From Bacilli bacterium (lineage in GTDB: Bacteria > Bacillota_I > Bacilli_A > ML615J-28 > CAG-698), in NCBI GenBank assembly GCA_918272565.1, contig CAKJYW010000003.1:5359-69358 (forward strand): a stretch of 64,000 nucleotides of DNA, read 5' to 3'. Below, one piece after another: positions 1 to 43,647 of this stretch. A program made the translations under genes and the position numbers. The notes under the pieces are model-generated. The model did not search any database. It saw only the letters and a list, made by a program, of their open reading frames with translations, and was not told where the DNA came from. Positions within the stretch are counted from its first letter, which is position 1, and each line of letters begins with the position of its first letter.

Positions 1-380
1 ATTACATTCTTATCAGATAATCCAAGTAGAGCTAGATTTATTGAATATAAACCTGTCATCGTTATGATACCTGATAGAATCATTGGAATTTTAAGTTTTG
101 TATGAAGTAAACCAGTAACAATTCCTCCTAAGGCACCAGCAACGCATGCAATTAATGTTGCTAAGATTGCAGGAACATTATAATAAATCAAAATACCTGC
201 AACACATGCACCCAAAGGAAATATACCTTCAATACTTAAATCAGCCGCATCTAATATACGATAAGAGATATGCACACCTAGTGTCATGATAGCCATTATT
301 AGGCCAATCTTGACTCCAGTAAGTGCTAAGTCAGCAATATTAACTGCTAAGAAAATATTGATTGACTCTAAGATTTGCAT
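1..380 (-). CDS. ABC transporter permease (5' part only; runs off the window)
   Basis: ATG at 380 overlaps the TAA of the upstream binding-protein gene (TAATG). Hydrophobic translation MQILESINIFLAVNIADLALTGVKIGLIMAIMTLGVHISYRILDAADLSIEGIFPLGA carries the DLS/TxEG motif typical of this permease family. Confidence 0.85.
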   Translation of the reverse strand, partial: MQILESINIFLAVNIADLALTGVKIGLIMAIMTLGVHISYRILDAADLSIEGIFPLGACVAGILIYYNVPAILATLIACVAGALGGIVTGLLHTKLKIPMILSGIITMTGLYSINLALLGLSDKNV

Positions 381-4970: not shown

Positions 4971-6341
4971 TTATTCTTGTGGAATTAAAAATAAAAGGTG
5001 TTTTGTCCCATTAATATGACCACATTTTGAGCAAACTTGATTTCCTCCGCTATAAACATAAGTATGTTGCTCTAAACCAACATAATCACATTTAGAGCAA
5101 TAAACAGAGTGAGATGTGTTGTTTAGAGAATTATATGACGCACTTGTGTGTGTTATAAGTTTTCTCCCACATGGGCACATACTTCCAGAGCATTTATTTG
5201 ACCCTGACCCTATTTGACAAGTGTAATTATCTGAATGAACATGCGAAGCACTTATATCAAAATAGTGGGCTACAGCATAGTAATACGGATTTATAGCCGA
5301 ATGGCAGTAGCCATTCCATCCAAAATGAGCAATAATGTCATTGTTTTCGTATCCATATACGACAACACTGTGCCCGTCTATTAATTCATCAAAATCATAA
5401 ATTCCAACTATTAATGGATAGCCAGCATCTATTGCATCTTTGCAAAATTTAGTTTTATTAACGTATAAATAAGATGCAGTAGTTACGCTTACAGATATAT
5501 TATATAAATCATCAAAGTAATCTTCAACGAAATTATCAATTTGGAAATAGTCTAGAACGCATTCATTATATGCTGTGTAACCAGCACCTCTTCCAAGATT
5601 TATTAAATATGAATGAAAATCATCATCTATCCCTGGTGAAATATCATAAGAAGACGTATCAAGTGAATAATAGTCGCTAAACACTTCACTATAACCTCTA
5701 TCATAATAATCATTAATTATATTGTCATTTAGAAACGTATCATAATAAGATAGAAGAATACCAACTGCGACATATGAACACGATTCAGCATAAGGATAAC
5801 CATTTGTGCCATAAAAAGTTGTGTCATTTTCAAAATAATATGCATCAGGAACATAGTTTGTGCTTCTAGTATTAGGTTGGTTTTTTTCTACATTTTTGCT
5901 TTGCAAAAATATTTCCTTGATTTCCGTTTCTTTTTCTATCAGACATTCTATAACTTCTTGATCTAATTCTTTATTACTAATTAAATCCTTAATAATGCCA
6001 TTGGTTTTATAAAAATAGTATGTTGGTCCTAAATAAAATTTCTCTTGAAATTCCACTTGACCATATGGATGACAGTCCTCTTTTGAATATTCAGTATATT
6101 CATTTGTATACAAATCATATATCAAATAACAATTGTTCCCTTTTACAAGAACATATCTTTCATTTCCACTGAGATCTTTTAAAAATTCATAATCAAACTC
6201 TTCAATTTGTAATTTAATTGCAACAGTTTCATATCAATCGCTTGGTAAATTGTCACTTCCCTCTGCTTTTGCTACTACAAATCCATAGCAATCAAACAAT
6301 AAAGCTAGTATACAAATGAAGAACAATCTTTTAATATGCAT
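4971..6341 (-). pseudogene. Secreted papain-like (C10/C39-like) cysteine peptidase gene interrupted by one in-frame TGA
   Basis: ATG at 6341 lies right after the upstream stop, encodes a signal peptide and is in frame with ORF 4971-6125. TGA at 6234-6236. Catalytic-like SCSYVAVGILL and GHSVVVYGY...HFGW; Cys/His-rich C-terminus. Confidence 0.65.
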
Positions 6342-29446: not shown

Positions 29447-30130
29447 TTATTGATTTATTACTATACTATCGCCATTTAGTTCGTAAGAAATAAAGCACGT
29501 CACACCTCTAGGAGCAATTTCATCTATGTCGTCACCATAAATACCATATATGAATATTCCAAGACGAACATATCCTTTTTCTTCAGTAAAAATATAGGAA
29601 GGAAGAGTTATTTCTTCAAATTTAGAAGTATCATCGATTTTTGGATAAAAACTTGGATAATTATAAGAACAAAAATCATCAATTGTTTTATAACAATAAT
29701 CGTTTGTTTTTAGAAATTCCGTTTCATACCTATCACTTCCATCAGTATAAAAATTTGGTTGAATCAAAATTCTATTATATTTACCATATTCAATTTCTAA
29801 TTTAACTAAATAATCATCGGCATATACACCATCCCTTGTATATTTCATTTTATTAATGTTTTGCAAAGTTGTTCCTATATACAATTTAAAAACTAAATCT
29901 TCTCCTACTTTTATTGTGTCCTTTTCAAAAACAGGCTGAAAAGAAATAAGTTCTGGGCCAGAAACATCAGAAGAACTTGATGGAATGACAAAAACATCAT
30001 TAGCATCAGTCACTGCACTAGAATTAATTTTTTCATTATCTGTTTCAACTGTTGGGTTACCATTAGCGTTACATCCAAAACCAAATAAAGCAACTATTAG
30101 TATAAAACAAAAAAATACTGATTTCTTCAT
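29447..30130 (-). CDS. Hypothetical lipoprotein, array paralog 2
   Basis: Lipobox GFGC; IKVGEDL..KLY, EIEYGKY, YKTIDDFC, EEITLPS. Confidence 0.8.
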   Translation of the reverse strand: MKKSVFFCFILIVALFGFGCNANGNPTVETDNEKINSSAVTDANDVFVIPSSSSDVSGPELISFQPVFEKDTIKVGEDLVFKLYIGTTLQNINKMKYTRDGVYADDYLVKLEIEYGKYNRILIQPNFYTDGSDRYETEFLKTNDYCYKTIDDFCSYNYPSFYPKIDDTSKFEEITLPSYIFTEEKGYVRLGIFIYGIYGDDIDEIAPRGVTCFISYELNGDSIVINQ

Positions 30131-30174
30131 TTACTCCACCTATATATTATTATTTTTTTAATCATCACTTTACC

Positions 30175-30840
30175 TCACGCATTATATAATTTATTTAATA
30201 CTTCGTTTTCTCTTCTATCATATATTATCACTTCACCATCATTTATTTTATACCATATTTTAGATGAAACCGAATAGGTCTGCGATAATACAAATTGCTC
30301 TTCACCATCAATATTTCTTTTTTCATATACACACATTTTAAATTCGATAAAACCTATTTTTTCCTTAAACCAAGTTGAAGGAATTATGAAATCTTCACTC
30401 TCATATTTATTAATAGGATAATCATCTTGTTCTGCAACAACTAATTCTTCATATTCTTTATGATAATATTCTTCTTTTGTATCATATCTACAATAATACT
30501 CTCTTTCATATTTGTTTTTTCCACACGATTTCAGTTTTATATCAGAATAGCCTATTTTAACACTACCACAGTATATTTTTATATCTACTTTGTGATTGTC
30601 AAAAAATTCTCCACCTTTTGCAAAATAGCTTTCTGGGTCTTCTATTTGGTTTCGATAAGCGTTATATTTCATGCTAATTTCCAAATCTTCGCCTACTTTG
30701 ATTTTATTAGTTTTAGTAAGCACTTCAAAATTTATCAATGGAGATGGGGTTGGAGAAGTGGCCTCTAACTTCATTGAAAAGCTGTTGAAGCACATTATAA
30801 AAAAGAAAATAAATAATATTGCAATTCTTTTTTTTATCAT
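30175..30840 (-). CDS. Hypothetical exported protein, distant array paralog 3
   Basis: Signal peptide; LINF...IKVGEDL, EDFIIPSTWFKEKIGFI, YKINDGEVII. Confidence 0.7.
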   Translation of the reverse strand: MIKKRIAILFIFFFIMCFNSFSMKLEATSPTPSPLINFEVLTKTNKIKVGEDLEISMKYNAYRNQIEDPESYFAKGGEFFDNHKVDIKIYCGSVKIGYSDIKLKSCGKNKYEREYYCRYDTKEEYYHKEYEELVVAEQDDYPINKYESEDFIIPSTWFKEKIGFIEFKMCVYEKRNIDGEEQFVLSQTYSVSSKIWYKINDGEVIIYDRRENEVLNKLYNA

Positions 30841-30859
30841 TATTTTTCTCCTCATACAT

Positions 30860-31390
30860 TTATCCAACAAATTCAATTTTACTGAATTCAACAATATTCA
30901 TTTTAAAGACTATCCATTTTGTGTCGGGAATAGAAGCATCAGGTACATATAAGTCTCTAGAGTTTTTATATTTCTTTCTGATCTCACACGTTATTTTCAA
31001 TGAATCGTCAACCAATCTTGCTTCAGTTATTATGTAGTATTTTTCTCCTAATTTTTCTGGATGCGCAGCTGTTGTAAAGCCATATAATACAACCATTTCG
31101 CTATTAAAATCGACATCAATAAAATCATCAAATGCTTTATTTAATTCTTCTTCACTTCTTATTTTTATTATTAATTCTTTTGGAAAACTATCATCATAAA
31201 TATAATACGTATACTCATTTATTACGTCTATTGCACCACATGTTTTATTGTTTGCTAGAAAATCTTTATTAAATGTGTAATCAGTATTTTTTAATATTTT
31301 TACATTATATTCGTTAGTGACATTTTCTTTACACGAACATCCAAATAATAGAGCAATGCAAGCTATTATATAAATTAGTACTTTTTTCAT
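30860..31390 (-). CDS. Hypothetical lipoprotein
   Basis: GAGGAGG RBS; lipobox LFGC. Confidence 0.75.
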   Translation of the reverse strand: MKKVLIYIIACIALLFGCSCKENVTNEYNVKILKNTDYTFNKDFLANNKTCGAIDVINEYTYYIYDDSFPKELIIKIRSEEELNKAFDDFIDVDFNSEMVVLYGFTTAAHPEKLGEKYYIITEARLVDDSLKITCEIRKKYKNSRDLYVPDASIPDTKWIVFKMNIVEFSKIEFVG

Positions 31391-31768: not shown

Positions 31769-32368
31769 TTATCTGTTGTAGAATTCAACGATAAGATTTT
31801 CTTTAATTTCACTTAAGAACTCATCGCGTTCTGGATAACGAACAAATGTTCCTTCCATAGCACCTTCATCAAAGAATACATATTCTTTTCTTGAAACCAT
31901 TGATTCTAAAGCTTCTTGGATAACCTTTAAGCTTCTTGAAGATTCCTTAACAGCAATCTTTTGTCCTGGTTTAACTAGATATGAAGGGATATCTACTTTC
32001 TTACCATCAACTAAAATGTGTCCATGATTAACTAATTGACGAGCTTGAGGACGAGTTGATGCTAAGCCTAAACGATAAACTAAGTTATCTAATCTAGATT
32101 CTAATAATTTTAAGAAGTTGTCGCCATGTTTGCCTGGCATCTTTTCTGCAAGTGCAAAAACCTTCTTGAATTGTTTTTCGCTCATTCCATATGTGAAACG
32201 AACTTTTTGTTTTTCATGTAATTGTGTACCATATTCAGTTAATTTTCCACGGCGTTGACCATGTTGTCCTGGTGCATAACTACGCTTTTGTAATTCTTTT
32301 CCAGTTTCGCTGATTGAATAACCTAATCTTCTTGAAACTTTCCAAGATGAACCTGTGTAACGTGACAT
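31769..32368 (-). CDS. rpsD: 30S ribosomal protein S4
   Basis: [32 protein letters not shown]. Confidence 0.98.
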
Positions 32369-32575: not shown

Positions 32576-33463
32576 TTAATTACTAATTCTACTGATGTAT
32601 TCTCTAATATCTCTAACTATACTACTTCTATTATGAATACTACTAGTAATCATAGCTACATACCTAACAGGTATCTCTTCTTCCAACTCTATTAAATATG
32701 CTCTTTTATTTTCTACACTTTCTTTAGCCATCTCACTAGGAATAAAAGCTAGTCCATAGTTTTTCTCAACCATTGGAAGTAAGACACTAGAACTATCTGC
32801 TTCAAATTCAGGGATGATCTCAACATTATGTTTAATTAAAAAATCATCAATATGGGCTCTAAATTGCATCTCTTCTGATAATAATATAAATGGGTATTTA
32901 GTAAGTTCAGAGATACTTCTTTTTTTGTTTGCTAAATCTTTGTATTTTTCCCCACACAATAACACATTATCAATCGTATAAACGTTTGTTATCCTTAAAT
33001 CATTATATTTTTGAAATGGTGTAGTAACAAAAGCCATGTCAATCTTACCATTTCTAACCATATCAAGTATTGAATGAGATGATCCAGTATATATCCTATA
33101 ATGAACATTAGGAAACTTCTTTTTAAATTCATTCATTGCATCAAACAAAAAGCAGTTTAGGGCAGTAACGGTTGCTCCCAAATAAACTACCTCATCAAAC
33201 ATTTTAGACTTGTCAGGCATTTCTTTATCGAGTCTAGAAAGTTCATTAAATGGATATTCTATTCTTTTATATAAGGCTTCACCTTCTTTTGTTAGTGTTA
33301 CTCCTTCTTTACTTCTAAAGAAGAGTTCCACTTTTAGTTCTTTTTCGATTGTTGAAATGATTCGACTAATAGCTGGCTGAGAAGTATAGAGAGCTTCAGC
33401 TGCCTTTGAAATATTCTTATACTGACACACAGTATAAAAGATTTTTAGATGTTCATAATTCAT
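32576..33463 (-). CDS. LysR-family transcriptional regulator
   Basis: NISKAAEALYTSQPAISR HTH; about 295 aa; divergent from the operon. Confidence 0.95.
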   Translation of the reverse strand: MNYEHLKIFYTVCQYKNISKAAEALYTSQPAISRIISTIEKELKVELFFRSKEGVTLTKEGEALYKRIEYPFNELSRLDKEMPDKSKMFDEVVYLGATVTALNCFLFDAMNEFKKKFPNVHYRIYTGSSHSILDMVRNGKIDMAFVTTPFQKYNDLRITNVYTIDNVLLCGEKYKDLANKKRSISELTKYPFILLSEEMQFRAHIDDFLIKHNVEIIPEFEADSSSVLLPMVEKNYGLAFIPSEMAKESVENKRAYLIELEEEIPVRYVAMITSSIHNRSSIVRDIREYISRISN

Positions 33464-33600: not shown

Positions 33601-35265
33601 ATGAAGAAGCTCCGAATCATTTTGATGATTATTCCTCTTATTCTTCTCTCTATCTTTTTAACATCTTGTTCAAATAATGAAGAGAAAGTAAGTTACAATA
33701 ATCGCACTTATGATTTGTCTACTGATGGAAGTGCATCAGTAATTGCTAGAAGTGTTAAAGAAGGATCTAAATATACTTTAACAATTTCTGGAAGTGGAGA
33801 AGCAGTTGATTTTGACAGAAAAGAAAGTGTTCCATGGAACCCTATCATTAAAAGTATCGATAAGATCATCATCGAAGATGGTGTTACTAAGATTGGCAGT
33901 TATTATTTCTATTCATCAACAGTTGGTGAATTTTATTTACCACAATCCTTGAAAACGATTTCAGCTAATGCCTTTAATGAGAACGCCATAATCTACTCTT
34001 ATAGTCAAGATATAACTACTTCTATAACTAATAAGATTTACTATTATAGTGAAAAGGCGCCAAGTGAATTTGGCAAGTATTTCCATATTGTTGAAGGGAA
34101 AGCAACAGTTTGGAATAAGTACAAAGTGTTATTTGTAGGTAATAGCTTTACTTATTACACTTTAAGTGCTGAAGACCCAATGGTACCAAAGTATTTTAAA
34201 GAACTGGCAGATAGCTTAGGTGAAGCTGTTGAAATTGATTTTGTAATAAAAGGATCTCACACTCTAACAAAGTTTAGTAATCCAGAAGATGAGATGGGTA
34301 AAATCTTATATGATAAATTAAGTAAATCTAATGATTATACTCATGTAATATTACAAGAACAATCAACTGCTCCAATTAATAGTTACAATAGCTTTAAAGA
34401 AGCAGTTGGTAAAATTAAAGCGCTAGTTGATAAAACTCAAACAAATTGTGAAGTAGTCTTATACGAAACATGGGGTTCTCCAACAGCTATAAAGTCTACT
34501 GGTCATAAGACAATTGGTGCTATGGAAGAAGTTTTAAGAAATGCATATGAAGCTTGTGCTAAAGAATATGGATTAAAAGTTGATTATGTTGGTAAAGCTT
34601 TTACTTATACTTATGAAGTATTAGGTATAAACATCTTCTATGAAGACGAGCGACACCAAAACGAAGCCGGTGCATACCTATCAGCCGCAACTCACCTAGC
34701 ATCGATTTTAAAAATTGATGTTAGAGAATCTAGCTTTAAAGGTAACCTAGATAGTGAACTTGCGTCAATTTTACGTAGTGTTGCTCATAAAGTTGCTTTT
34801 AATTTACCACTTGATGGTGCAACTTCAAATAATCAAGAAAGTGAAGTAGATAACGAAAATCACTTAATAGTTATTGCTTGGTATAAGAAGACAGCTACAT
34901 CAGGTTTAACTGATGAAATAATGAATAGTTTTTTAATTAAGTTAAAATCTTATTTAAAAACATTAAATTATAGCGATGAAGAAATTAATTCTATATTAAT
35001 AAAAGGATACGAAGGAAACGTTGCTCCATCTTGTGAAGCAATTAAACAAGATGGGAATGTTGATATTATGATTGGTTGGAAATCAAACGTTGATACAACA
35101 GGTAATTTATCATTTATTGAGTCTTACCCCTCAAGTGCTGATGGTATTGGCATTAAAATGGGAGAAGTTGATGGTAGATGGATTCATCGTTTGACTGAAA
35201 CTGATATAGCTAAAGTGATATTTAACTGGATTATTGAAGAGAAAGATAACAATCTTTTTCAATAA
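33601..35265 (+). CDS. Lipoprotein: BspA-like LRR fragment + SGNH-type esterase + novel C-terminal domain
   Basis: Lipobox LTSC; IEDGVTKIGSYYF...LPQSLKTISANAF; VLFVGNSF, ILQEQS, YETW, DERH (DxxH). Confidence 0.8.
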   Translation: MKKLRIILMIIPLILLSIFLTSCSNNEEKVSYNNRTYDLSTDGSASVIARSVKEGSKYTLTISGSGEAVDFDRKESVPWNPIIKSIDKIIIEDGVTKIGSYYFYSSTVGEFYLPQSLKTISANAFNENAIIYSYSQDITTSITNKIYYYSEKAPSEFGKYFHIVEGKATVWNKYKVLFVGNSFTYYTLSAEDPMVPKYFKELADSLGEAVEIDFVIKGSHTLTKFSNPEDEMGKILYDKLSKSNDYTHVILQEQSTAPINSYNSFKEAVGKIKALVDKTQTNCEVVLYETWGSPTAIKSTGHKTIGAMEEVLRNAYEACAKEYGLKVDYVGKAFTYTYEVLGINIFYEDERHQNEAGAYLSAATHLASILKIDVRESSFKGNLDSELASILRSVAHKVAFNLPLDGATSNNQESEVDNENHLIVIAWYKKTATSGLTDEIMNSFLIKLKSYLKTLNYSDEEINSILIKGYEGNVAPSCEAIKQDGNVDIMIGWKSNVDTTGNLSFIESYPSSADGIGIKMGEVDGRWIHRLTETDIAKVIFNWIIEEKDNNLFQ

Positions 35266-35318
35266 TATAAATTTGATTTAAAAAGTAAAATAATTTTCAT
35301 TTTTTTAAGGAGGATAAC

Positions 35319-37205
35319 ATGAAAATCAAAAAACTTTTATTATTATTTTTAGTAGCCTTTTTGTTCTTAGGCTTCGTAGGTTGTGGAAAGGGTAATAAAG
35401 ACGAAAAAGAGCCTGACAAACCAGACGATCCTAGTCAAGGAGAAGTAATCGAAAAGGAAACTTTCACAGTTATATTTGAAAGCGAAGGAACTCGTCATGC
35501 AACTGTTAAAGTTAAAGATGGAGAAAAGATTACTGCTGAAGTAAATAACCCTTCAAAAGATGGTTATTCTTTTGTTGGATGGTTCAAAGGTGAAGAAAAA
35601 GTTGATCTAGCTACATTTGTAGTAACAGAGAATGTTACACTTGTTGCTAAATTTGAAAGTGATGCAATTGATAACACACTTGATGTAAATGCTAAGAAAG
35701 AAGCTGGAAAGACTTACACATTAGTAATCGGTTGGTGGGAAGTTAAAAACCCTGATGACCCAGACAAGAAGACAAGTTATTTAACTGAAGAATTAGTTAA
35801 GAAATTCTATACTAACGTAAATCTTTACTTAAAAGTTAAAGGCTTAAGCGATGCTGAAATAGCTAATGTTCAATTCCGTAACTACTCAACTGCAACAGTT
35901 GCTGATATGGGTGCATTAGTTAATGAAGATGGTGATGTAGATATTATGATTGGTGTTGGTAACAACATTAATTCAACTGCTGGTGTTGCTCTATTTGAAG
36001 GAAGTAACGATAACAAGTTTGCAACTCTAATGGGTTCTACTCCAACTTCTCGTTATGTAGCTTTAACATCAGTTGCTACAACTTTAGGTGTTAATGTATA
36101 TGACTGGTTAACTACAGAAACTGGTAAAAAAGCATTTAATGAAATGTTAAAAGAATCTGACATCCAAATCGCTCCTGCAAGAACATCAGAAGCTAATGTT
36201 GATGTAACAGTTCATACTGGTGTAGAAGATGAAAAATTACATTTTGCTTCTAAAGACGATGAATTCCAATTACCAGAAGTAGCAGTTCCAGAAGGATATG
36301 TATTTGATGGATTTGCATTAAGCGATGGTGGCGAATTAGTATTATCAAAAGCAAATGGCGATGTATTAAAATATGCTGATATTAAAGGTTTACTTGGAGA
36401 AGCAACTTCTATTGAATTATTCCCAGTATATAGCGTATTAGTTGTTTCTGAAGAAGATTTGAATGTTTATATCCAATTAAATAATGGATTAAAAGAAGGC
36501 GAAGCTGAATTACTTGTTGCAAGATTCAGACAAACAGTTGATAGCTCTTTAACTATTGCCTTCACATTCATTGAAGGAAATGCTGACACATTCACTGCTG
36601 AACTTAATAATGCTTCAAGTCAAGTAGATGTTATCATCGGTGGAAATAACCCACTTAAGAATTATCCTGCTCATGAAGATGGTAAGTTAGCTAACGCTGG
36701 TGCTAAACACTTTGCTGATGGAAGCCGTAAAGTATTAATTCATGCTAATACTCAACACTTAGAACTTGCTAAGAAATTATATGACTTTGTTGTAGCTGAT
36801 GCTCCAGCATATGAATTACATATCACATTCTGGCTAAATGAAAACAAGTGGATCACAGTTGATGAACTTGCCGCATTAAAGAGCGGACTTGAAACATTCA
36901 TTAATACAAGATTCGCTTTAGCTGATGGCGCTAATTTATATGATCTATATAACTTCAAAGTAACTACTTACGATGCTACAAACACTAAAGTTGCTGAACT
37001 TGGTGAAGAAACAAGAGCTCAAAGAGACGGTAAAGGAACAGATTTAATTGTTGGCTGTGGCGCTAATGTAACAACAACAGGTGGATTTGAAGATGCATTT
37101 GTTAAAGACATTAACACAACAATGGTTGCTGCTGGAAGAAAAGTTGCTTTAATCAACTCTAACCCACTTACTATGGCAATATACTTTAATTTCTTTACTG
37201 AATAA
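35319..37205 (+). CDS. Lipoprotein: InlB B-repeat-like domains + three copies of the novel domain
   Basis: Lipobox FVGC; PSKDGYSFVGWF...NVTLVAKF and PEGYVFDGF; repeated VDIMIG/VDVIIG/TDLIVG. Confidence 0.8.
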   Translation: MKIKKLLLLFLVAFLFLGFVGCGKGNKDEKEPDKPDDPSQGEVIEKETFTVIFESEGTRHATVKVKDGEKITAEVNNPSKDGYSFVGWFKGEEKVDLATFVVTENVTLVAKFESDAIDNTLDVNAKKEAGKTYTLVIGWWEVKNPDDPDKKTSYLTEELVKKFYTNVNLYLKVKGLSDAEIANVQFRNYSTATVADMGALVNEDGDVDIMIGVGNNINSTAGVALFEGSNDNKFATLMGSTPTSRYVALTSVATTLGVNVYDWLTTETGKKAFNEMLKESDIQIAPARTSEANVDVTVHTGVEDEKLHFASKDDEFQLPEVAVPEGYVFDGFALSDGGELVLSKANGDVLKYADIKGLLGEATSIELFPVYSVLVVSEEDLNVYIQLNNGLKEGEAELLVARFRQTVDSSLTIAFTFIEGNADTFTAELNNASSQVDVIIGGNNPLKNYPAHEDGKLANAGAKHFADGSRKVLIHANTQHLELAKKLYDFVVADAPAYELHITFWLNENKWITVDELAALKSGLETFINTRFALADGANLYDLYNFKVTTYDATNTKVAELGEETRAQRDGKGTDLIVGCGANVTTTGGFEDAFVKDINTTMVAAGRKVALINSNPLTMAIYFNFFTE

Positions 37206-37217
37206 AAAGGATGACTA

Positions 37218-38015
37218 ATGATTAAAATAAAAAAGATTATATTATTACTACTTGCTTTCTCTAGTGCTTTTATTCTAGCAAGCTGTGCTGCTAAAGGCTT
37301 AGAAAAAGAAATCAATGTAGTTTTCGAGGTCGATGGAGAATATATATCTTGTGGTAAAGTAACTCAATTTGATAGTATCTTTACTCCAGAACTAGACGAG
37401 GCTTATATCCCACTAGGATATAAGTTCCTCGGATGGACTCCATACGAATTAAATGAAGTAAAACCAACTGATCCAAATCTAAAAGATAAGTATGTACCTG
37501 CTGGAAAGATGGTTCATTATTCAGAAGTTTGTGATAAAGCATTAAATTCAACAGTAGTTTTAAAAGCATTAATGTTTGATAAGGCTGATATTCCTGTTGA
37601 ATATCATTATGTAGTTATCGCTTGGTACGATAAAGAAACAACAAGTGGTATTACAGCTGCCAAGATGGATGAACTTCTTACAGCACTAACAAATCACTTA
37701 CGCTCAACTGGCGTTAGTGAAGACGATATTAAATCAATCGTTATTAGAGGTTACGACGGAAACGTTGGTGCATCTACTGGTAAAATCGTAGATGACGATG
37801 ATGTTGACATCATGTTTGGATGGGGCTCTGCTGAAAATGTAACAACTACAGGTGTTTTAAAACCTGAGATGTTAAAGGAAACTGAAGCAAACTACACAAT
37901 CATGTATAATGGAGCCGCAAAATCAAGAACAATCCACCGCTTAACTGATAAACCAACTGCTATTCTAGTAATGGAATGGTTAAAATCAGATGAGTGTCGT
38001 GCATTGTTTAATTAG
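37218..38015 (+). CDS. Lipoprotein: B-repeat-like domain + novel domain
   Basis: Lipobox LASC; PLGYKFLGW; VIAWY...GYDGNV...VDIMFGW. Confidence 0.8.
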   Translation: MIKIKKIILLLLAFSSAFILASCAAKGLEKEINVVFEVDGEYISCGKVTQFDSIFTPELDEAYIPLGYKFLGWTPYELNEVKPTDPNLKDKYVPAGKMVHYSEVCDKALNSTVVLKALMFDKADIPVEYHYVVIAWYDKETTSGITAAKMDELLTALTNHLRSTGVSEDDIKSIVIRGYDGNVGASTGKIVDDDDVDIMFGWGSAENVTTTGVLKPEMLKETEANYTIMYNGAAKSRTIHRLTDKPTAILVMEWLKSDECRALFN

Positions 38016-38026
38016 GGAGGCGTGTT

Positions 38027-40432
38027 ATGAAGAAAAAACTTTTAACTACTGCCCAAGTATTTGAATATATTTTTACTTTCTTACACATGTTTGCTTCAGC
38101 ACTATTCTTCTCAGTAAGAAATAACTTATACATTATGTTTTTAGTGTTTGCTGTAGTAAGCATTGTACTTGGTTTATATACTGAAACAATTAAATTTCAC
38201 TTAAATGAAAAAGATTATAAGATTCACTTAATCGTAATAACTATTTTATCTATAGTTAGCTTTCCTGCTTGTTTATTTAATTTACTTGCAATATTAGCAA
38301 ACAAAGATAGTAAAGTTATTAAAGTAGCTAATTTAGAATATAAAGAAAAAGAATGTTGTAAAGAAAGAAAAGTTAAACCTGCATTAATAGTTTTAATCGT
38401 TTCTCTTGTTTTAATCATTGTATCTAGCATTATAGGTAATGTATTTGAAACAAGTGGAGGAACTGTTAAAGTTGTTGATGGTGTTATAACAAGTGAAGAC
38501 TGTGCTTTATACAACAAGGGTGAAGATAATGCCTTAAATGGTGTTAATTATGTAATTGAAGACCCTCATGTACAAGTTGCATACACTATGTATAAACCAA
38601 AAGCAGCTTCAGCTACAAACCCTTATCCAGTTGTATTTGTTACTCCAGGCTTTACAAGAACTAAAGCTACAATGACACAATATGCAATTGAACTATCACG
38701 TAGAGGTGCTGTAGTATTTGTTATTGACCCAGGAAGTCAAGGAGACACTACATTTGGTGGATACCAAGTTGATGAAAATGGTGAATATGTTCTTGATGAA
38801 AATGGTGATAAGATTCAAAACTCATACAGTGTTGCTCGTAGTGGTATGGGTTACTTAATGCAATATGTATATAATGATGTAGATGATTTTGATTTTATCG
38901 ATAGAGATAGAATCGGTCTAGTTGGTCATAGCGCTGGTGGAGGCGATGCAGCAAAACTTGCTTCAGACTTTGCTGGTAGTAATTATAACGAATCAATTGT
39001 TAAAGCATTATATATTTCTGGTTACATCAAAGCTTCAGCAATCAAAGTATTTGCTAAACTTCATTGTAACGCAGCAATAAGCTATGCAAAATATGATGAA
39101 GGTGCTTTTAGATATCAAACTAAAGATGAATCATATGAAGCAGCAGCCTTAGAATTTATTGATAAAGTAAATCCTGATTCAGGACATTTCATTCAAGATT
39201 ATGATTATGGTTCAATAGATAACGGAACATACCGTATCATTCATCACGAAGAAATCAATCATTGCTTCGAAATGTATGATCCACTATCAATTAGTAACAC
39301 TACATCATTCTTCCGTGAAACTTTAAACATTGATACTACTATAGAAGATACTAGTCAAGTGTGGTTTATTAGAGAATGTGCTAATGGAATTAGCCTTGTA
39401 GCTGCATTTATGCTTGTAATTAGTCTTGCTAGTCTAATTATTGCTTATGTTCCATTTATGAAATCATTATCTAAAGCTGCTAGTGAAAGACGCGAAGATG
39501 AAAAAGCAATCAGAGCCGCCTACACTCTTAACCTTTATGAAAGAGCAATGGCAGGAAGCGATGCAGAAGAAAGAACTTTCACAAAAAGATTATTATTCTG
39601 GCTACCAACTATTCTAACCGCAATCATTGCATGCTTAGATTACATTCCACTTGCTAGACTATCTATGGACTTATTCCCAGATGCAGCTGGTAATGTTTAT
39701 ACATTCTACTTCCCAGCAAGAATGATGAACGCAGTATTTTTGTGGGCTGTAGTAAACGGCTTTATCGGACTAGTTGTCTGGGCACTAACAACTGTTTGTG
39801 AAAATTTAGTATACACAATCATTAGTAAGGTTAAAAACGTTGAAAACAAATCTGATTGGAGTAAATTCAAAGGTCTAAAAGTTAAACCTCTTGATTTATT
39901 AAAATCAGTTGGTCTAGCAGTATTACTATTCTTGGTATTCTTTGGTGTATTACAAGTTGTTTACTGGACAACTCACCAAGACTTTAGATTTATGCTAATA
40001 TCAGCATCTCCATTAAATAAGAGATTTGTTATGACATGGTTAATTTACCTATGTGGATTCTTAGTATTCTATCTATCTAACTCAATTAGAGTTAATCTAA
40101 CTATCGCAAGAGAAGGCTTTAAAGAATGGCAAGTTATGATTATTGGTGGTCTTGCTAACTCTTTAGGTTTACTATTCATCCTAATCATTAACTACTGGCC
40201 ATACTTCACAAATGGTACAGTATTCTATGGATACTATAGTGCAACTGACTCAAGCGAAATGTGGTTATATATTAATATGGTATTTGGATTAGTCGTTATG
40301 ATGTTTATCCTACCTATATTTAATAGAATTATTTATAAGAAGACAGGTAATGTTTATTGTGGCGCATTATTATGGTGTATGATATTTATCATGATGAGCT
40401 TATCAGCATCAATTTCATTTATTCCAATGTAA
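38027..40432 (+). CDS. Polytopic membrane alpha/beta hydrolase
   Basis: PVVFVTPGF, RIGLVGHSAGG nucleophile elbow; several N-terminal and about 8 C-terminal hydrophobic helices. Confidence 0.85.
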   Translation: MKKKLLTTAQVFEYIFTFLHMFASALFFSVRNNLYIMFLVFAVVSIVLGLYTETIKFHLNEKDYKIHLIVITILSIVSFPACLFNLLAILANKDSKVIKVANLEYKEKECCKERKVKPALIVLIVSLVLIIVSSIIGNVFETSGGTVKVVDGVITSEDCALYNKGEDNALNGVNYVIEDPHVQVAYTMYKPKAASATNPYPVVFVTPGFTRTKATMTQYAIELSRRGAVVFVIDPGSQGDTTFGGYQVDENGEYVLDENGDKIQNSYSVARSGMGYLMQYVYNDVDDFDFIDRDRIGLVGHSAGGGDAAKLASDFAGSNYNESIVKALYISGYIKASAIKVFAKLHCNAAISYAKYDEGAFRYQTKDESYEAAALEFIDKVNPDSGHFIQDYDYGSIDNGTYRIIHHEEINHCFEMYDPLSISNTTSFFRETLNIDTTIEDTSQVWFIRECANGISLVAAFMLVISLASLIIAYVPFMKSLSKAASERREDEKAIRAAYTLNLYERAMAGSDAEERTFTKRLLFWLPTILTAIIACLDYIPLARLSMDLFPDAAGNVYTFYFPARMMNAVFLWAVVNGFIGLVVWALTTVCENLVYTIISKVKNVENKSDWSKFKGLKVKPLDLLKSVGLAVLLFLVFFGVLQVVYWTTHQDFRFMLISASPLNKRFVMTWLIYLCGFLVFYLSNSIRVNLTIAREGFKEWQVMIIGGLANSLGLLFILIINYWPYFTNGTVFYGYYSATDSSEMWLYINMVFGLVVMMFILPIFNRIIYKKTGNVYCGALLWCMIFIMMSLSASISFIPM

Positions 40433-40445
40433 GAGGTGATTACTT

Positions 40446-41618
40446 ATGAACATTAAAGAAGAATCATTAAAGTGTCATTATAATTGGCGCGGAAAAATTG
40501 AAATTAAACCAAGAGTAGAAGTAGATACTTGTGAAAAGTTATCTTTAGCTTATACTCCTGGAGTAGCTGAGGCATGTATGGAGATACACAATCACCCAGA
40601 AAAGAGTTTTGAACTTACAAGACGTTGGAATACAGTACCAGTTATAACCGATGGAACTGCAGTGCTTGGTCTTGGAGATATTGGACCTGAAGCTGGTATG
40701 CCAGTTATGGAAGGTAAAGCTGCACTATTTAAGACATTTGGTGATGTAGATGCTTACCCTTTATGTATTAGAAGTAAAGACACAGAAGAAATTATTAAAA
40801 CAATTAAGCTACTTGCTGGTTCTTGGGGTGGAATTAACCTAGAAGATATCTCAGCTCCTCGTTGTTTTGAAATTGAAACAAGACTTAAAGAAGAACTTGA
40901 TATTCCAGTATTCCACGATGATCAACACGGAACTGCAATTGTCACTGCAGCTGCTTTAATTAATGCTTTAAAGATAGTTAATAAAGAAATGAGTGAAATC
41001 AAAGTAGTTATTAACGGAGCAGGAGCAGCAGGTATTTCAATCTGTCGTTTCTTAATTAAGTTTGGTGTTACAAATGCTTTAATTTGTGATAGGCAAGGAA
41101 TTATCTACCGAGGTGCCCCTTGGCTTAACCCATCACAAGCAAAGATTGCTGAAATAACTAATAAAGACAATATTGAAGGATCTTTAAGTGAAGCTATGAA
41201 AGGTGCTGATGTATTTATTGGTGTATCTGGACCAAACTGTGTTACTCAAGATATGGTTAGATCAATGGCAGATAAATCAATCCTATTTACTTTAGCAAAT
41301 CCAATCCCAGAAATTGATCCAAAACTAGCTAAAGAAGCAGGAGCTTACATTATTGGTACAGGTTCAAGTCAATATCCAAACCAAATCAATAACGTATTAG
41401 TATTCCCTGGTTTATTTAGAGGAGCAATAGATGCTAAAGCAACAACCATTAACGATGAGATGATGAAAGCAGCATCAATTGGAATTGCTAGCTGTGTAAG
41501 TAGCGAAGAATTAAGACGTGAATACATCCTACCATTTGCATATGACAAGAAAGCTCACAAATGTGTTAGTGAAAAAGTAAAAGAAGCTGCAATCCAAACT
41601 GGAGTTATTAAAAAATAA
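40446..41618 (+). CDS. NAD(P)-dependent malic enzyme
   Basis: [54 protein letters not shown]. Confidence 0.96.
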
Positions 41619-41666: not shown

Positions 41667-42422
41667 TTATTTAACTGCTGCGTTAACTAATGTAACAAAG
41701 TCATCAGCTTTTAGACTTGCACCACCAATTAAAGCACCATCAATGTTTGGTTTGCTCATTAATTCATCAATGTTAGATGTCTTAACACTTCCACCATATT
41801 GAATTCTAATTGCTTCAGCAGTTTCTTTATCATATAGCTTTTCAACCATCTTACGAATGAATCCACAAGTTTCATCAGCAACATCAGCTGTTGCAGTTTT
41901 ACCTGTTCCAATTGCCCAAATTGGTTCATAAGCTATAACTAATTCTTTTACTTGTTCTTTTGTTAAACCAGCTAAATCTAATGTTACTTGGTTTTCTAAC
42001 CATTCTTCAACTTTATTAGCTTCTCTAGTTTCAAGTGCTTCACCAACACAAAGGATTGGAGTTAAGCCAACTTCAAATGCTTTATGAAGTTTTTTATTGA
42101 TTGTTTCATCAGTTTCATTGAACATTGCTCTTCTTTCACTATGTCCAATAATAACATATTCAACTTCGATTGACTTAAGCATTAAGCCACTTACTTCGCC
42201 AGTGAATGCACCACTGTCTTCAAAGTGCATATTTTGTGCACCAATTCTTAAGTTTTCGCCTTGACGCTGAACTAAGCATCTTAAAACTGTGAATTGAGAG
42301 CAAATAACACTGTCAACATAAGCTTTGCTTGGTAATTTATTAGCGACTGCAAGGATGAATTGTAATGCTTCATCACGAGTCTTAAACATTTTCCAGTTTC
42401 CGGCAATAATAGGTTTTCTCAT
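41667..42422 (-). CDS. tpiA: Triosephosphate isomerase
   Basis: [28 protein letters not shown]. Confidence 0.98.
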
Positions 42423-42435
42423 TTTTGTCTCCTTA

Positions 42436-43647
42436 TTAGTGGCAATGTCCACAATGACATTCGTCATCGATACAATCGATTCCTGGTAAAACTTTACCTT
42501 CTAAATATTCTAATGAAGCTCCTCCACCAGTTGAGATGTGAGTGAATTTGTCTTCATAACCTAATTTGATTGCTGCAGCAGCACTATCACCACCACCGAT
42601 GATTGTTACAGCGTCCTTAAGTTCTGCTAATAATTTACAAATTCCATTTGTTCCTTCAGCAAACTTATCAAATTCGAATACGCCAGCAGGACCGTTCCAA
42701 ACAACAGTCTTAGCACCAGCTAATTCTTTTTTGAATAATTCTAATGTCTTAGGTCCAATGTCTAATCCCATCTTATCAGCAGGAATCTTACTTGATTCAA
42801 CAACTTCGCTTTCAGCGTCTTCAGCAAATTCTTTAGCTACAACTGTGTCAAGTGGAAGAATAATCTTACCATTTGCTTTTTCTAATAATCCTTTAGCAAA
42901 TTCAACGAAGTCATCTTCACATTTACTAGTTCCAACTTCATAACCTAATGATTTATAGAATGTGTAAGCCATAGCTCCACAAATTAATACTTTATCAGCT
43001 TTAGTAATTAAGCTTTCGATAACAGAAATCTTATCACTAACTTTAGCTCCACCAAGGATAGCTACAAATGGATGAACAGGATTATCTACAGCGCCACCGA
43101 TAAACTTAATTTCTTTTTCCATTAAGAAACCAGCAACAGTAGTCTTGATGTTACTTGCAATACCAACATTACTTGCAGCTGCTCTATGAGCTGTACCGAA
43201 TGCATCATTTACAAATACTTCACCAAGTGATGCCCAATATTTACCAAGTTCAGGATCATTCTTTGATTCTTTCTTACCATCTAAGTCTTCATAACGAGTG
43301 TTTTCCAACATAACAACTTCTTTAGGTTGTAAAGCTTTAACAGCTTCTTCAACTAAAGCGCCTCTTGTTGCAGGGACAAACTTAACTTCTTGACCTAATA
43401 ATTCAGCTAACTTCTTAGCAACAGGTGCTAAAGTGTTTTTCTTAAGGTCAGCTTCTTCTTTAACTCTTCCTAAGTGAGAAAGTAAAACAACTTTAGCTTC
43501 ATGCTCTAAAGCATACTTAATTGTTGGAAGAGCTTGGATGATACGATTACTATCAGTAATAACACCATCTTTCATAGGAACATTGAAGTCAACACGCATT
43601 AAAACGACTTTGTTCTTTAATTCAACATCTTTAATAGTTTTTTTCAT
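42436..43647 (-). CDS. pgk: Phosphoglycerate kinase
   Basis: [33 protein letters not shown]. Confidence 0.98.

Follow-up and report, generated by a model that had tools for sequence, protein, structure and literature searches.

What is the domain that is repeated in three neighbouring lipoproteins in a Bacilli bacterium (CAG-698; assembly GCA_918272565.1), and what might it do there? The window, by which we mean the whole 64,000-nt stretch of DNA analysed, covers positions 5,359–69,358 of the forward strand of contig CAKJYW010000003.1, and coordinates below are those of the window. Three consecutive genes within it code for the lipoproteins P0001, P0002 and P0003 (open reading frames starting at 33601, 35319 and 37218), which together carry five copies of a unit of ~130 residues. 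In predicted structures, this unit corresponds to the N- plus C-terminal ('discontinuous') lobe of a class II solute-binding protein (SBP), with the second lobe missing. The fold belongs to a known superfamily; the family, and the gene module in which it is found, are undescribed.

Five copies of one domain

The units are homologous to one another. A first-pass annotation of this DNA had seen clear homology between the C-termini of P0001 and P0003, and BLASTP against a database of the three proteins gives 37.8% identity over 143 amino acids for this pair, with E values of 1.8e-21 to 1.1e-25. In the same comparison the C-terminus of P0001 matches the first copy in P0002 (27% identity, 144 amino acids, E 1.2e-10), and the second and third copies reach E values of 0.15–2.9 at best. 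We term the copies A (P0001), B1, B2 and B3 (P0002) and C (P0003). Relatives of P0003 (52) and of P0002 (56) were then aligned, and these family alignments were cut by domain and compared with hhalign. Copy C aligns to B1 with a probability of 99.6% (4.9e-24), B1 to B3 with 97.6% (3.7e-12), B1 to B2 with 93.6% (2.2e-7) and C to B3 with 93.8% (1.8e-7); the remaining pairs score 47% (C–B2) and 57% (B2–B3). Based on the scores of its pairs, B1 ties all five copies together.

We aligned 59 copies, drawn from 19 related loci and the window itself, and searched the 1.69-Mb genome of the window with the resulting profile. Relaxing the threshold to E≤1 still gives five matches and no more (E 1e-44 to 1e-19), each of them within 34855–38012. 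These are copy A (34855..35262, + strand; P0001 residues ~419–554; E 1.1e-44), B1 (35712..36140, +; P0002 residues ~132–274; E 4.8e-39), B2 (36444..36809, +; residues ~376–497; E 1.2e-19), B3 (36810..37202, +; residues 498–628; E 1.9e-27) and C (37599..38012, +; P0003 residues 128–265). The three divergent copies that had been proposed for P0002 are thus recovered by the profile and, via B1, by hhalign. B2 is the most divergent of the five.

Each unit runs strand–helix–strand–helix–strand–short helix–hairpin–helix. A 'D(V/I)D-I-M-x-G' strand is present in the copies, and the closing helix carries an aromatic residue (VMEW, IFNW, VYDW, LYDF or IYFNF), in line with the 'xYD/NW' type of ending described by the first-pass annotation, all of whose quoted motifs were located in the reading frames to which it had assigned them. 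Only two positions, one Arg and the Gly that follows strand 3, are the same in all 59 aligned copies; a single Asp comes close.

The predicted fold is that of a single class II lobe

Models were built with AlphaFold2 from the family alignments, so the structures discussed here are predicted, not solved. The predicted local distance difference test score is 93.1 for P0003 and 88.4 for P0002. Using VIA-align, we compared the models with 48,161 chains, considering the best 50 rows for each and judging the kind of protein by its title. As background, models lacking a clear match are stated to reach a best Z of 7–8 and a Z of 4–5 at rank 50. For copy C, the top matches have Z scores of 11.2, 11.1 and 10.5, each with 113 residues aligned at a root mean square deviation (rmsd) of 2.5–2.8, and the row at rank 50 has a Z of 8.3. 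Going by title, every one of its best 50 rows is a class II SBP or a LysR effector domain, apart from 6lkg, whose title is uninformative. For P0002, 47 of the best 50 rows are of the class II SBP type and fall on residues ~378–496, namely B2 (Z 11.3–9.0, ~105 aligned), while the other three are B-repeats aligned to residues 46–116.

The way in which these chains align identifies the lobe. In the ModA-like chain 4kd5_C (Z 11.2, rmsd 2.5), the 113 aligned positions represent about half of a 229-residue chain, and the aligned range, 42..262, extends over both of its ends. The same holds for the VIA matches in general, whose targets are about twice the size of the domain. Because only half of each chain is aligned and yet both ends are reached, the unit corresponds to the lobe that the N- and C-terminal segments build, and it has no counterpart of the other lobe; ~130 residues do not accommodate the two-lobed, hinge-closed architecture of class II proteins. 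The initial suggestion of one lobe of a type II binding protein lacking its partner therefore stands (Z 10–11, about half of the target chains aligned). The accompanying claim that the three P0002 segments share one fold stands for B2 by structure, and for B1 and B3 by profile and by the order of secondary-structure elements, which for B1 in the P0002 model is the same as in the other copies. With Foldseek, the P0003 model had no match at E≤1e-3, the weak rows for the lobe being ModA, a sulfate-binding protein and LysR domains (E 0.009–0.15); kinship with SBPs is clear with VIA-align only.

Class II SBPs (ModA, sulfate- and ferric-binding proteins; SBP_bac_11) and LysR effector domains have the same lobe architecture (rmsd 2.4–3.0, 105–122 aligned), and several consensus motifs, compared by eye, run in parallel: strand 1 leads into a Ser-containing loop, strand 2 into a Gly-rich loop, strand 3 has the form 'D-hydrophobic-hydrophobic', and the closing helix carries 'F/Y..[YW]l.S/T'. 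Like the lone-lobe lipoproteins, SBPs of Gram-positive bacteria are extracytoplasmic and lipid-anchored. Unlike class II SBPs, however, the lone lobe has neither hinge nor closed cleft, it occurs in tandem arrays and as an appendage of B-repeat and esterase domains, and its gene module lacks genes for ATP-binding cassette (ABC), tripartite ATP-independent periplasmic (TRAP) or tripartite tricarboxylate (TTT) transporters.

Sequence comparison with ModA-type proteins

At the level of whole-domain sequence, comparison with SBPs gave no significant match. No Pfam or NCBIfam family matched the lobe copies, which agrees with the first-pass view that the domain lies outside characterised families. 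When the 59 copies were compared with the Pfam SBP families, 0/59 reached the cut-off, and SBP_bac_1 appeared weakly in 2/59 (best E 0.0046). A near-threshold match of another family protein, P0254, to SBP_bac_8 (26.0 bits, cut-off 27) was discounted, as this protein is a fragment whose score is summed over three near-identical repeats. For profile comparison we assembled alignments of ModA-type proteins (12 sequences), other SBP_bac_11 members (17) and SBP_bac_1 (20) from Bacilli genomes (loci L037–L096). None of the three reached significance in whole-domain hhalign (best 32.6%, P 4.7e-4). When PDB chains were searched by sequence, P0003 and the 59-copy profile (E≤10) picked up nothing beyond chance or designed-repeat matches, and a domain look-up in the ESM Atlas scored 0.78, under the useful level.

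With the domain split, a trace of ModA becomes visible. The last strand and helix match columns 218–247 of the 257-column ModA-type alignment (80.1%, P 1.4e-5), where lobe I has its C-terminal strand and helix. The same comparison run on the reversed alignment gave P 0.49, and the best of 20 column shuffles scored 11.5 versus 30.5 for the real alignment; across all reversal and shuffle controls, P was at least 0.16. Because the match falls there, the 'xYD/NW' helix can be equated with the usual closing helix of ModA-type proteins. The N-terminal part aligns collinearly at columns 44–88, at a P value (0.098) that is not significant. Between the two matched segments lie ~130 ModA columns, compared to ~25–35 residues in the lone lobe, a difference that fits excision of lobe II.

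A rare family with several architectures

Searched against 1.84 billion proteins, the 59-copy profile retrieves 294 cluster representatives at E≤1e-3 and 237 at E≤1e-10. The lone-lobe family is thus rare. Its proteins carry one to five copies, which nearly always reach the C-terminus. We scanned 109 of the 150 listed representatives (294 in total) against Pfam. Flg_new or Flg_new_2 is present in 43, LRR_5 in nine (five of these with DUF4886) and GLUG in five; Big_2, FtsX_ECD and the pullulanase X25 domain (in P0220) each occur once, and most of the remainder have no Pfam family at all. None of the 109 is fused to a transporter component or a signalling domain known to Pfam. The 1754-residue P0322 combines LRR_5, an alpha-amylase catalytic domain, three CBM26 domains, DUF4886 and a lone lobe. 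P0088 (457 amino acids, CNNM PF01595 plus CBS) is 61% identical to P0003 over 28% of the latter's length; its gene, on a 1.9-kb contig, was possibly called as a chimera.

When 185,579 species genomes were scanned with a pattern, 33 loci emerged. Their hosts are uncultured members of the Bacilli (Acholeplasmatales-like) and of the Clostridia (Christensenella-like), of rumen and gut origin. In the window's own order, lobes are found in 7/106 genomes and 5/31 genera. Nineteen of the 33 loci contain four lobes, three contain five, five contain three, two contain two and four contain one; several of the low counts come from loci cut by contig ends.

In the window, the module occupies ~9.3 kb between rpsD (31769–32368) and tpiA (41667–42467). 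In one genome of the same genus the rpsD–tpiA gap is 243 bp (G096:C5:20605-22199), and in another the two genes lie 9.9 kb apart with unrelated genes between them. Because this interval differs between genomes of one genus, the module is accessory and located in a variable site. The 9.9-kb insert contains the C-terminal part of a GMP synthase, IMPDH, an FtsX/ABC pair, MarR and FeoAB.

The lobes belong to a conserved gene module

From 33601 to 41618, five closely packed genes are coded on the + strand, in the order P0001, P0002, P0003, an 801-residue membrane protein and a 390-residue malic enzyme. P0001 (33601..35265, +; 554 amino acids) consists of a lipobox, BspA-type leucine-rich repeats (LRR_5, 4e-07), an SGNH-type esterase (DUF4886, 1.7e-06), in which GNSF and DxxH motifs can be recognised, and lobe A. 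P0002 (35319..37205, +; 628 amino acids; 178 homologues) is a lipoprotein with an InlB B-repeat, B1, a second beta domain, B2 and B3. P0003 (37218..38015, +; 265 amino acids) has a lipobox, a B-repeat-like beta domain and lobe C, and each of its 85 homologues is named no more than 'hypothetical'. Read from the sequence, the lipobox Cys is present in all three (LTSC, FVGC and LASC, residues 20–23). Cys23 is invariant across the P0003 family alignment, and a lipobox-like pattern is seen in 109/137 family representatives with a full start. Because the proteins already have lipoboxes, and because the domain sits at the extreme C-terminus, we rejected the idea that the lobes are cell-wall anchors.

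The fourth gene (38027..40432, +) encodes a polytopic membrane alpha/beta-hydrolase. Hydropathy and charge predict three N-terminal transmembrane helices, an acidic outward domain of ~310 residues with a GHSAG motif and ~8 further helices. Its Pfam matches, to PETase and Abhydrolase_6, are weak. The protein falls in Atlas clusters of ~800 residues named PET hydrolase- or cutinase-like (score 0.98–0.99), and no family matched its C-terminal membrane part. Clusters named in this way occur in Bacillota and Mycoplasmatota. The fifth gene (40446..41618, +) encodes a short-type NAD(P) malic enzyme (Pfam malic 3.8e-28, Malic_M 1.2e-25), which matches the NCBIfam NADP-malic enzyme subfamily at 1.4e-105, under that family's cut-off, and is the sole cytoplasmic enzyme of the module.

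Across the 33 loci, the recurring families are the lobes (33), the membrane hydrolase (31), an SGNH lipoprotein (26), the malic enzyme (25) and a LysR regulator (20). Other recurring reading frames look like antisense shadows of the module genes, and neither an ABC, TRAP or TTT transporter gene nor a chemotaxis gene is among the recurring families. The malic enzyme gene lies either after the hydrolase gene or before the esterase gene. Only some SGNH orthologues have a C-terminal lobe; esterases bearing one are found in the window and in loci L004, L009 and L011. In each of the 13 loci whose gene order was followed, the next gene after the last lone-lobe gene is that for the hydrolase. Within the window's order, close hydrolase orthologues (68–100% identity) are present in exactly the seven of 106 genomes that have lobes, adjoining the lobe genes, and three further genomes have distant paralogues only. 

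A possible role in ligand capture

Residues kept in most copies cluster in a few places. In P0003 numbering, these are W136, Y137, K139, T142, S143 and G144 after strand 1 (W-Y-x-K-x-x-T-S-G); Y179, G181, N182, V183 and G184 after strand 2 (Y-x-G-N-V-G); G201, W202, S204, N207, T211 and G212 after strand 3 (D-I-M-x-G-W-x-S...N..T-G); and R237, H240 and R241 in the last strand, where the invariant Arg lies. ModA grips its oxyanion through the loops that follow strands 1 and 2, using a Ser hydroxyl together with backbone groups. By sequence, the T-S-G and G-N-V-G loops occupy these same positions. The lobe domains are acidic overall (mean net charge −7.8), and the retention of Arg and Lys in such a setting suggests an anionic ligand. 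The isolated discontinuous domain of LAO (dA), which is the same kind of class II lobe with its termini fused, is described as stable and as binding arginine with a dissociation constant of 131 µM, versus 1 nM for the whole protein (bioRxiv 10.1101/2023.03.18.532921). Hence, a lone lobe can bind weakly.

The fold, the repeat family, its rarity and the coupling of the genes are direct results of the comparisons above, whereas ligand binding, the nature of the ligand and its transfer to the hydrolase are inferences. From these features we infer, with slightly better than even confidence, that the lobes are low-affinity, multivalent capture modules for an anionic ligand, placed beside the esterases. 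In place of the second lobe of a class II protein (~130 residues in ModA-type relatives), each unit has a short helix and a beta-hairpin. Lipid-anchored proteins carry the units on the outside of the cell, where they follow B-repeat domains or an SGNH esterase and usually number four to a locus; there they would act as open-faced binding modules whose arrays would add avidity. The simplest candidate ligand would be a malyl ester, or malate released from it, which the lobes may retain on the surface of the membrane, beside both the SGNH esterase and the ~800-residue membrane hydrolase; the product could then feed the co-regulated malic enzyme. As there are two outward-facing esterases and the malic enzyme is the only cytoplasmic enzyme of the module, surface capture of the ester or its acid product would be economical.

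Several observations weigh against this proposal. The positions of the conserved residues, in the loops and on the last strand, probably face the ligand cleft in two-lobed relatives, but this placement is argued from topology rather than from coordinates. Since B2 and B3 lack the T-S-G loop, as do 10/59 aligned copies overall, the copies cannot all bind alike. The link to malate is one of gene neighbourhood, and the malic enzyme is absent from 8/33 loci, several of which are cut by contig ends. Moreover, the amylase and CBM26 domains of P0322 and the X25 domain of P0220 may hint at glycan rather than malate ligands. An acylated glycan could thus be the ligand instead, as the amylase/CBM26 fusion would suggest. 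Taken by themselves, the P0322 and P0220 fusions are a possible hint of alpha-glucan substrates.

We also weighed a catalytic (Ser/His/Asp) role for the lobe and rejected it: the invariant Asp residues lie before strand 3, on the sheet edge opposite the T-S-G loop, and His240 is missing from the B-type copies.

An alternative, raised in its trans form by the first-pass annotation and considered unlikely here, is that lobes pair in cis or in trans to form closed two-lobed sites, B2 with B3 and B1 or A with C being the candidates. Four is the commonest number of lobes per locus (19/33), and in L009 and L011 a P0002-type protein with two lobes plus a lobe on the esterase again makes four. B2 and B3 adjoin without a linker, with a gap of 0 residues in 13/13 three-copy (B1-B2-B3) proteins of related loci, and the last two copies of Clostridia arrays are 3–10 residues apart. 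There is also a precedent of a kind, in that the halves of ribose-binding protein, a class I SBP, are described as folding on their own and as forming a heterodimer that regains full binding (PMC10601554). However, every copy here is of the same (N- plus C-terminal) kind, and a pair of them would not rebuild the normal cleft between lobe I and lobe II. Totals of one, two, three and five lobes also occur, the window itself having five. When the P0002 model is aligned to two-lobed SBPs with Foldseek over 230–320 columns, the rmsd is 15–22 Å and the TMt 0.16–0.24, so the modelled arrangement is not like that of a periplasmic binding protein; with a predicted template modelling score of 0.53, the model says little on inter-domain packing in any case. 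A complex prediction for B1 and C scored 0.00 in two runs in which the controls did not fold, and so speaks neither for nor against pairing.

The lobes could instead be docking modules, the second idea of the first-pass annotation, their open face binding the outward domain or loops of the membrane hydrolase, or the SGNH esterase, to assemble a surface complex. The genomic coupling fits this idea: lobes and close hydrolase orthologues go together in 7/7 genomes, adjoining on the same contigs, the hydrolase gene comes right after the last lone-lobe gene wherever order could be followed (13/13), and in the four loci named above the SGNH esterase itself bears a lobe. Gene adjacency alone, however, is weak evidence of binding. 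Conservation falls on small polar, aromatic and basic residues, the kind seen in ligand sites, rather than on a hydrophobic patch, and one to five lobe copies stand against a single hydrolase gene. These points make docking distinctly improbable in our judgement.

We give little credence to a more elaborate version, in which the lobes are the binding subunits of an undescribed kind of binding-protein-dependent hydrolase-importer. Here, the lipid-anchored array would capture a malyl or other acyl ester and dock on the ~800-residue hydrolase, whose outward domain would stand in for the missing second lobe. The ester would be cleaved in the composite cleft, and the acid would move through the eight C-terminal membrane helices to the malic enzyme. 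If true, this would be an uptake route without an ABC, TRAP or TTT component.

Finally, that the likeness to SBP lobes is convergent and the unit a generic three-layer alpha/beta spacer with no binding role would be in keeping with the failure to reach any Pfam SBP family, the non-significant whole-domain profile comparisons and the low sequence identity to structural matches (5–18%), but it is scarcely credible given that the best chains have the class II SBP fold in 50/50 rows for copy C and 47/50 for P0002, with no other alpha/beta fold among the rows shown, that the C-terminal ModA match lies at the topologically correct place with clean controls, and that 19 columns are invariant and 44 nearly invariant among the 52 sequences of the P0003 family alignment (33–78% identical to P0003).

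Comparison with known single lobes

Two-lobed binding proteins are thought to stem from duplication of a single lobe. To our knowledge, work on isolated lobes has so far dealt mainly with laboratory constructs. The one natural single-domain example, whose function is unknown, is RmSBP of Rhodothermus marinus (PDB 6K1W/6K1Y), described as a natural single-domain SBP comprising one alpha/beta lobe (PMC10805632). It is like the present domain in being a natural lone lobe, and shows that such lobes exist in nature. It differs in that, by the same account, it resembles the C-terminal domain of Trp/Phe-binding SBPs, is single-copy with ~185 amino acids, and is encoded near a chemotaxis-receptor gene, whereas the lobes described here are of the N- plus C-terminal class II kind and form arrays on lipoproteins beside esterases. 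RmSBP-type chains were found neither by the 59-copy profile in PDB (E≤10) nor among the best 50 VIA rows, though the two may still be related in fold.

LAO dA and the halves of ribose-binding protein are laboratory constructs made from two-lobed proteins, whereas the deletion seen here is natural. Compared to engineered lobes, the present one is old enough to have given rise to four diverged paralogue types, and it is embedded in multidomain lipoproteins. The literature that we searched contains no account of lone class II lobes, of lipoprotein arrays of them or of the module, and for natural single-lobed SBPs it offered only the papers of Hocker and of Nam.

This natural, conserved family appears to represent the opposite route to duplication: a class II lobe that lost its partner, multiplied into arrays and was recruited to surface lipoproteins. 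For studies of protein evolution it offers a test case, supplied by nature, of how much a lobe can do by itself, and the domain merits its own family entry. With it comes a compact five-gene module, horizontally scattered among little-known bacteria of gut and rumen, and the co-regulated malic enzyme is the only hint of that module's substrate.

Accompanying domains and neighbouring genes

The InlB B-repeat (Flg_new) of P0002 (35460..35660, + strand) is recognised by Pfam, VIA-align and Foldseek alike. Residues 49–111 match PF09479 (Flg_new) with E 1.3e-13, and the repeat aligns to 2y5p_A with Z 11.0 and rmsd 1.3 over 68 residues (Foldseek E 2.7e-05, TMt 0.84). Residues 46–116 align to Listeria InlB and also to an N-terminal domain of the Treponema denticola sialidase TDE_0471 (PDB 10qf; Z 9.4, 33% identity). 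For the N-terminal domain of P0003, assignment as an InlB B-repeat is weaker (Foldseek E 5e-3; Flg_new in 20/52 family members at E≤1). The second beta domain of P0002 (residues 291–373; 36189–36437) lies between B1 and B2 and has a weak B-repeat likeness by profile, with 68.8% to the N-terminal domain of P0003 and 43% to the first repeat.

Divergent from P0001, and upstream of it, is a gene for a LysR-family regulator (32576..33463, − strand; Pfam HTH_1 1.4e-18, LysR_substrate 2.5e-33), for which no NCBIfam equivalog was found at its cut-off. The region surrounding the module is coded on the − strand, and the sign of the GC skew flips at the + strand block 33601–41618. Three adjoining small open reading frames on the − strand at 29447–31390 encode proteins of 176–239 amino acids that begin with a hydrophobic leader, and a lipobox-like Cys is seen in two of the three. 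A 'KVGEDL' motif is common to the first two, which look like paralogues.

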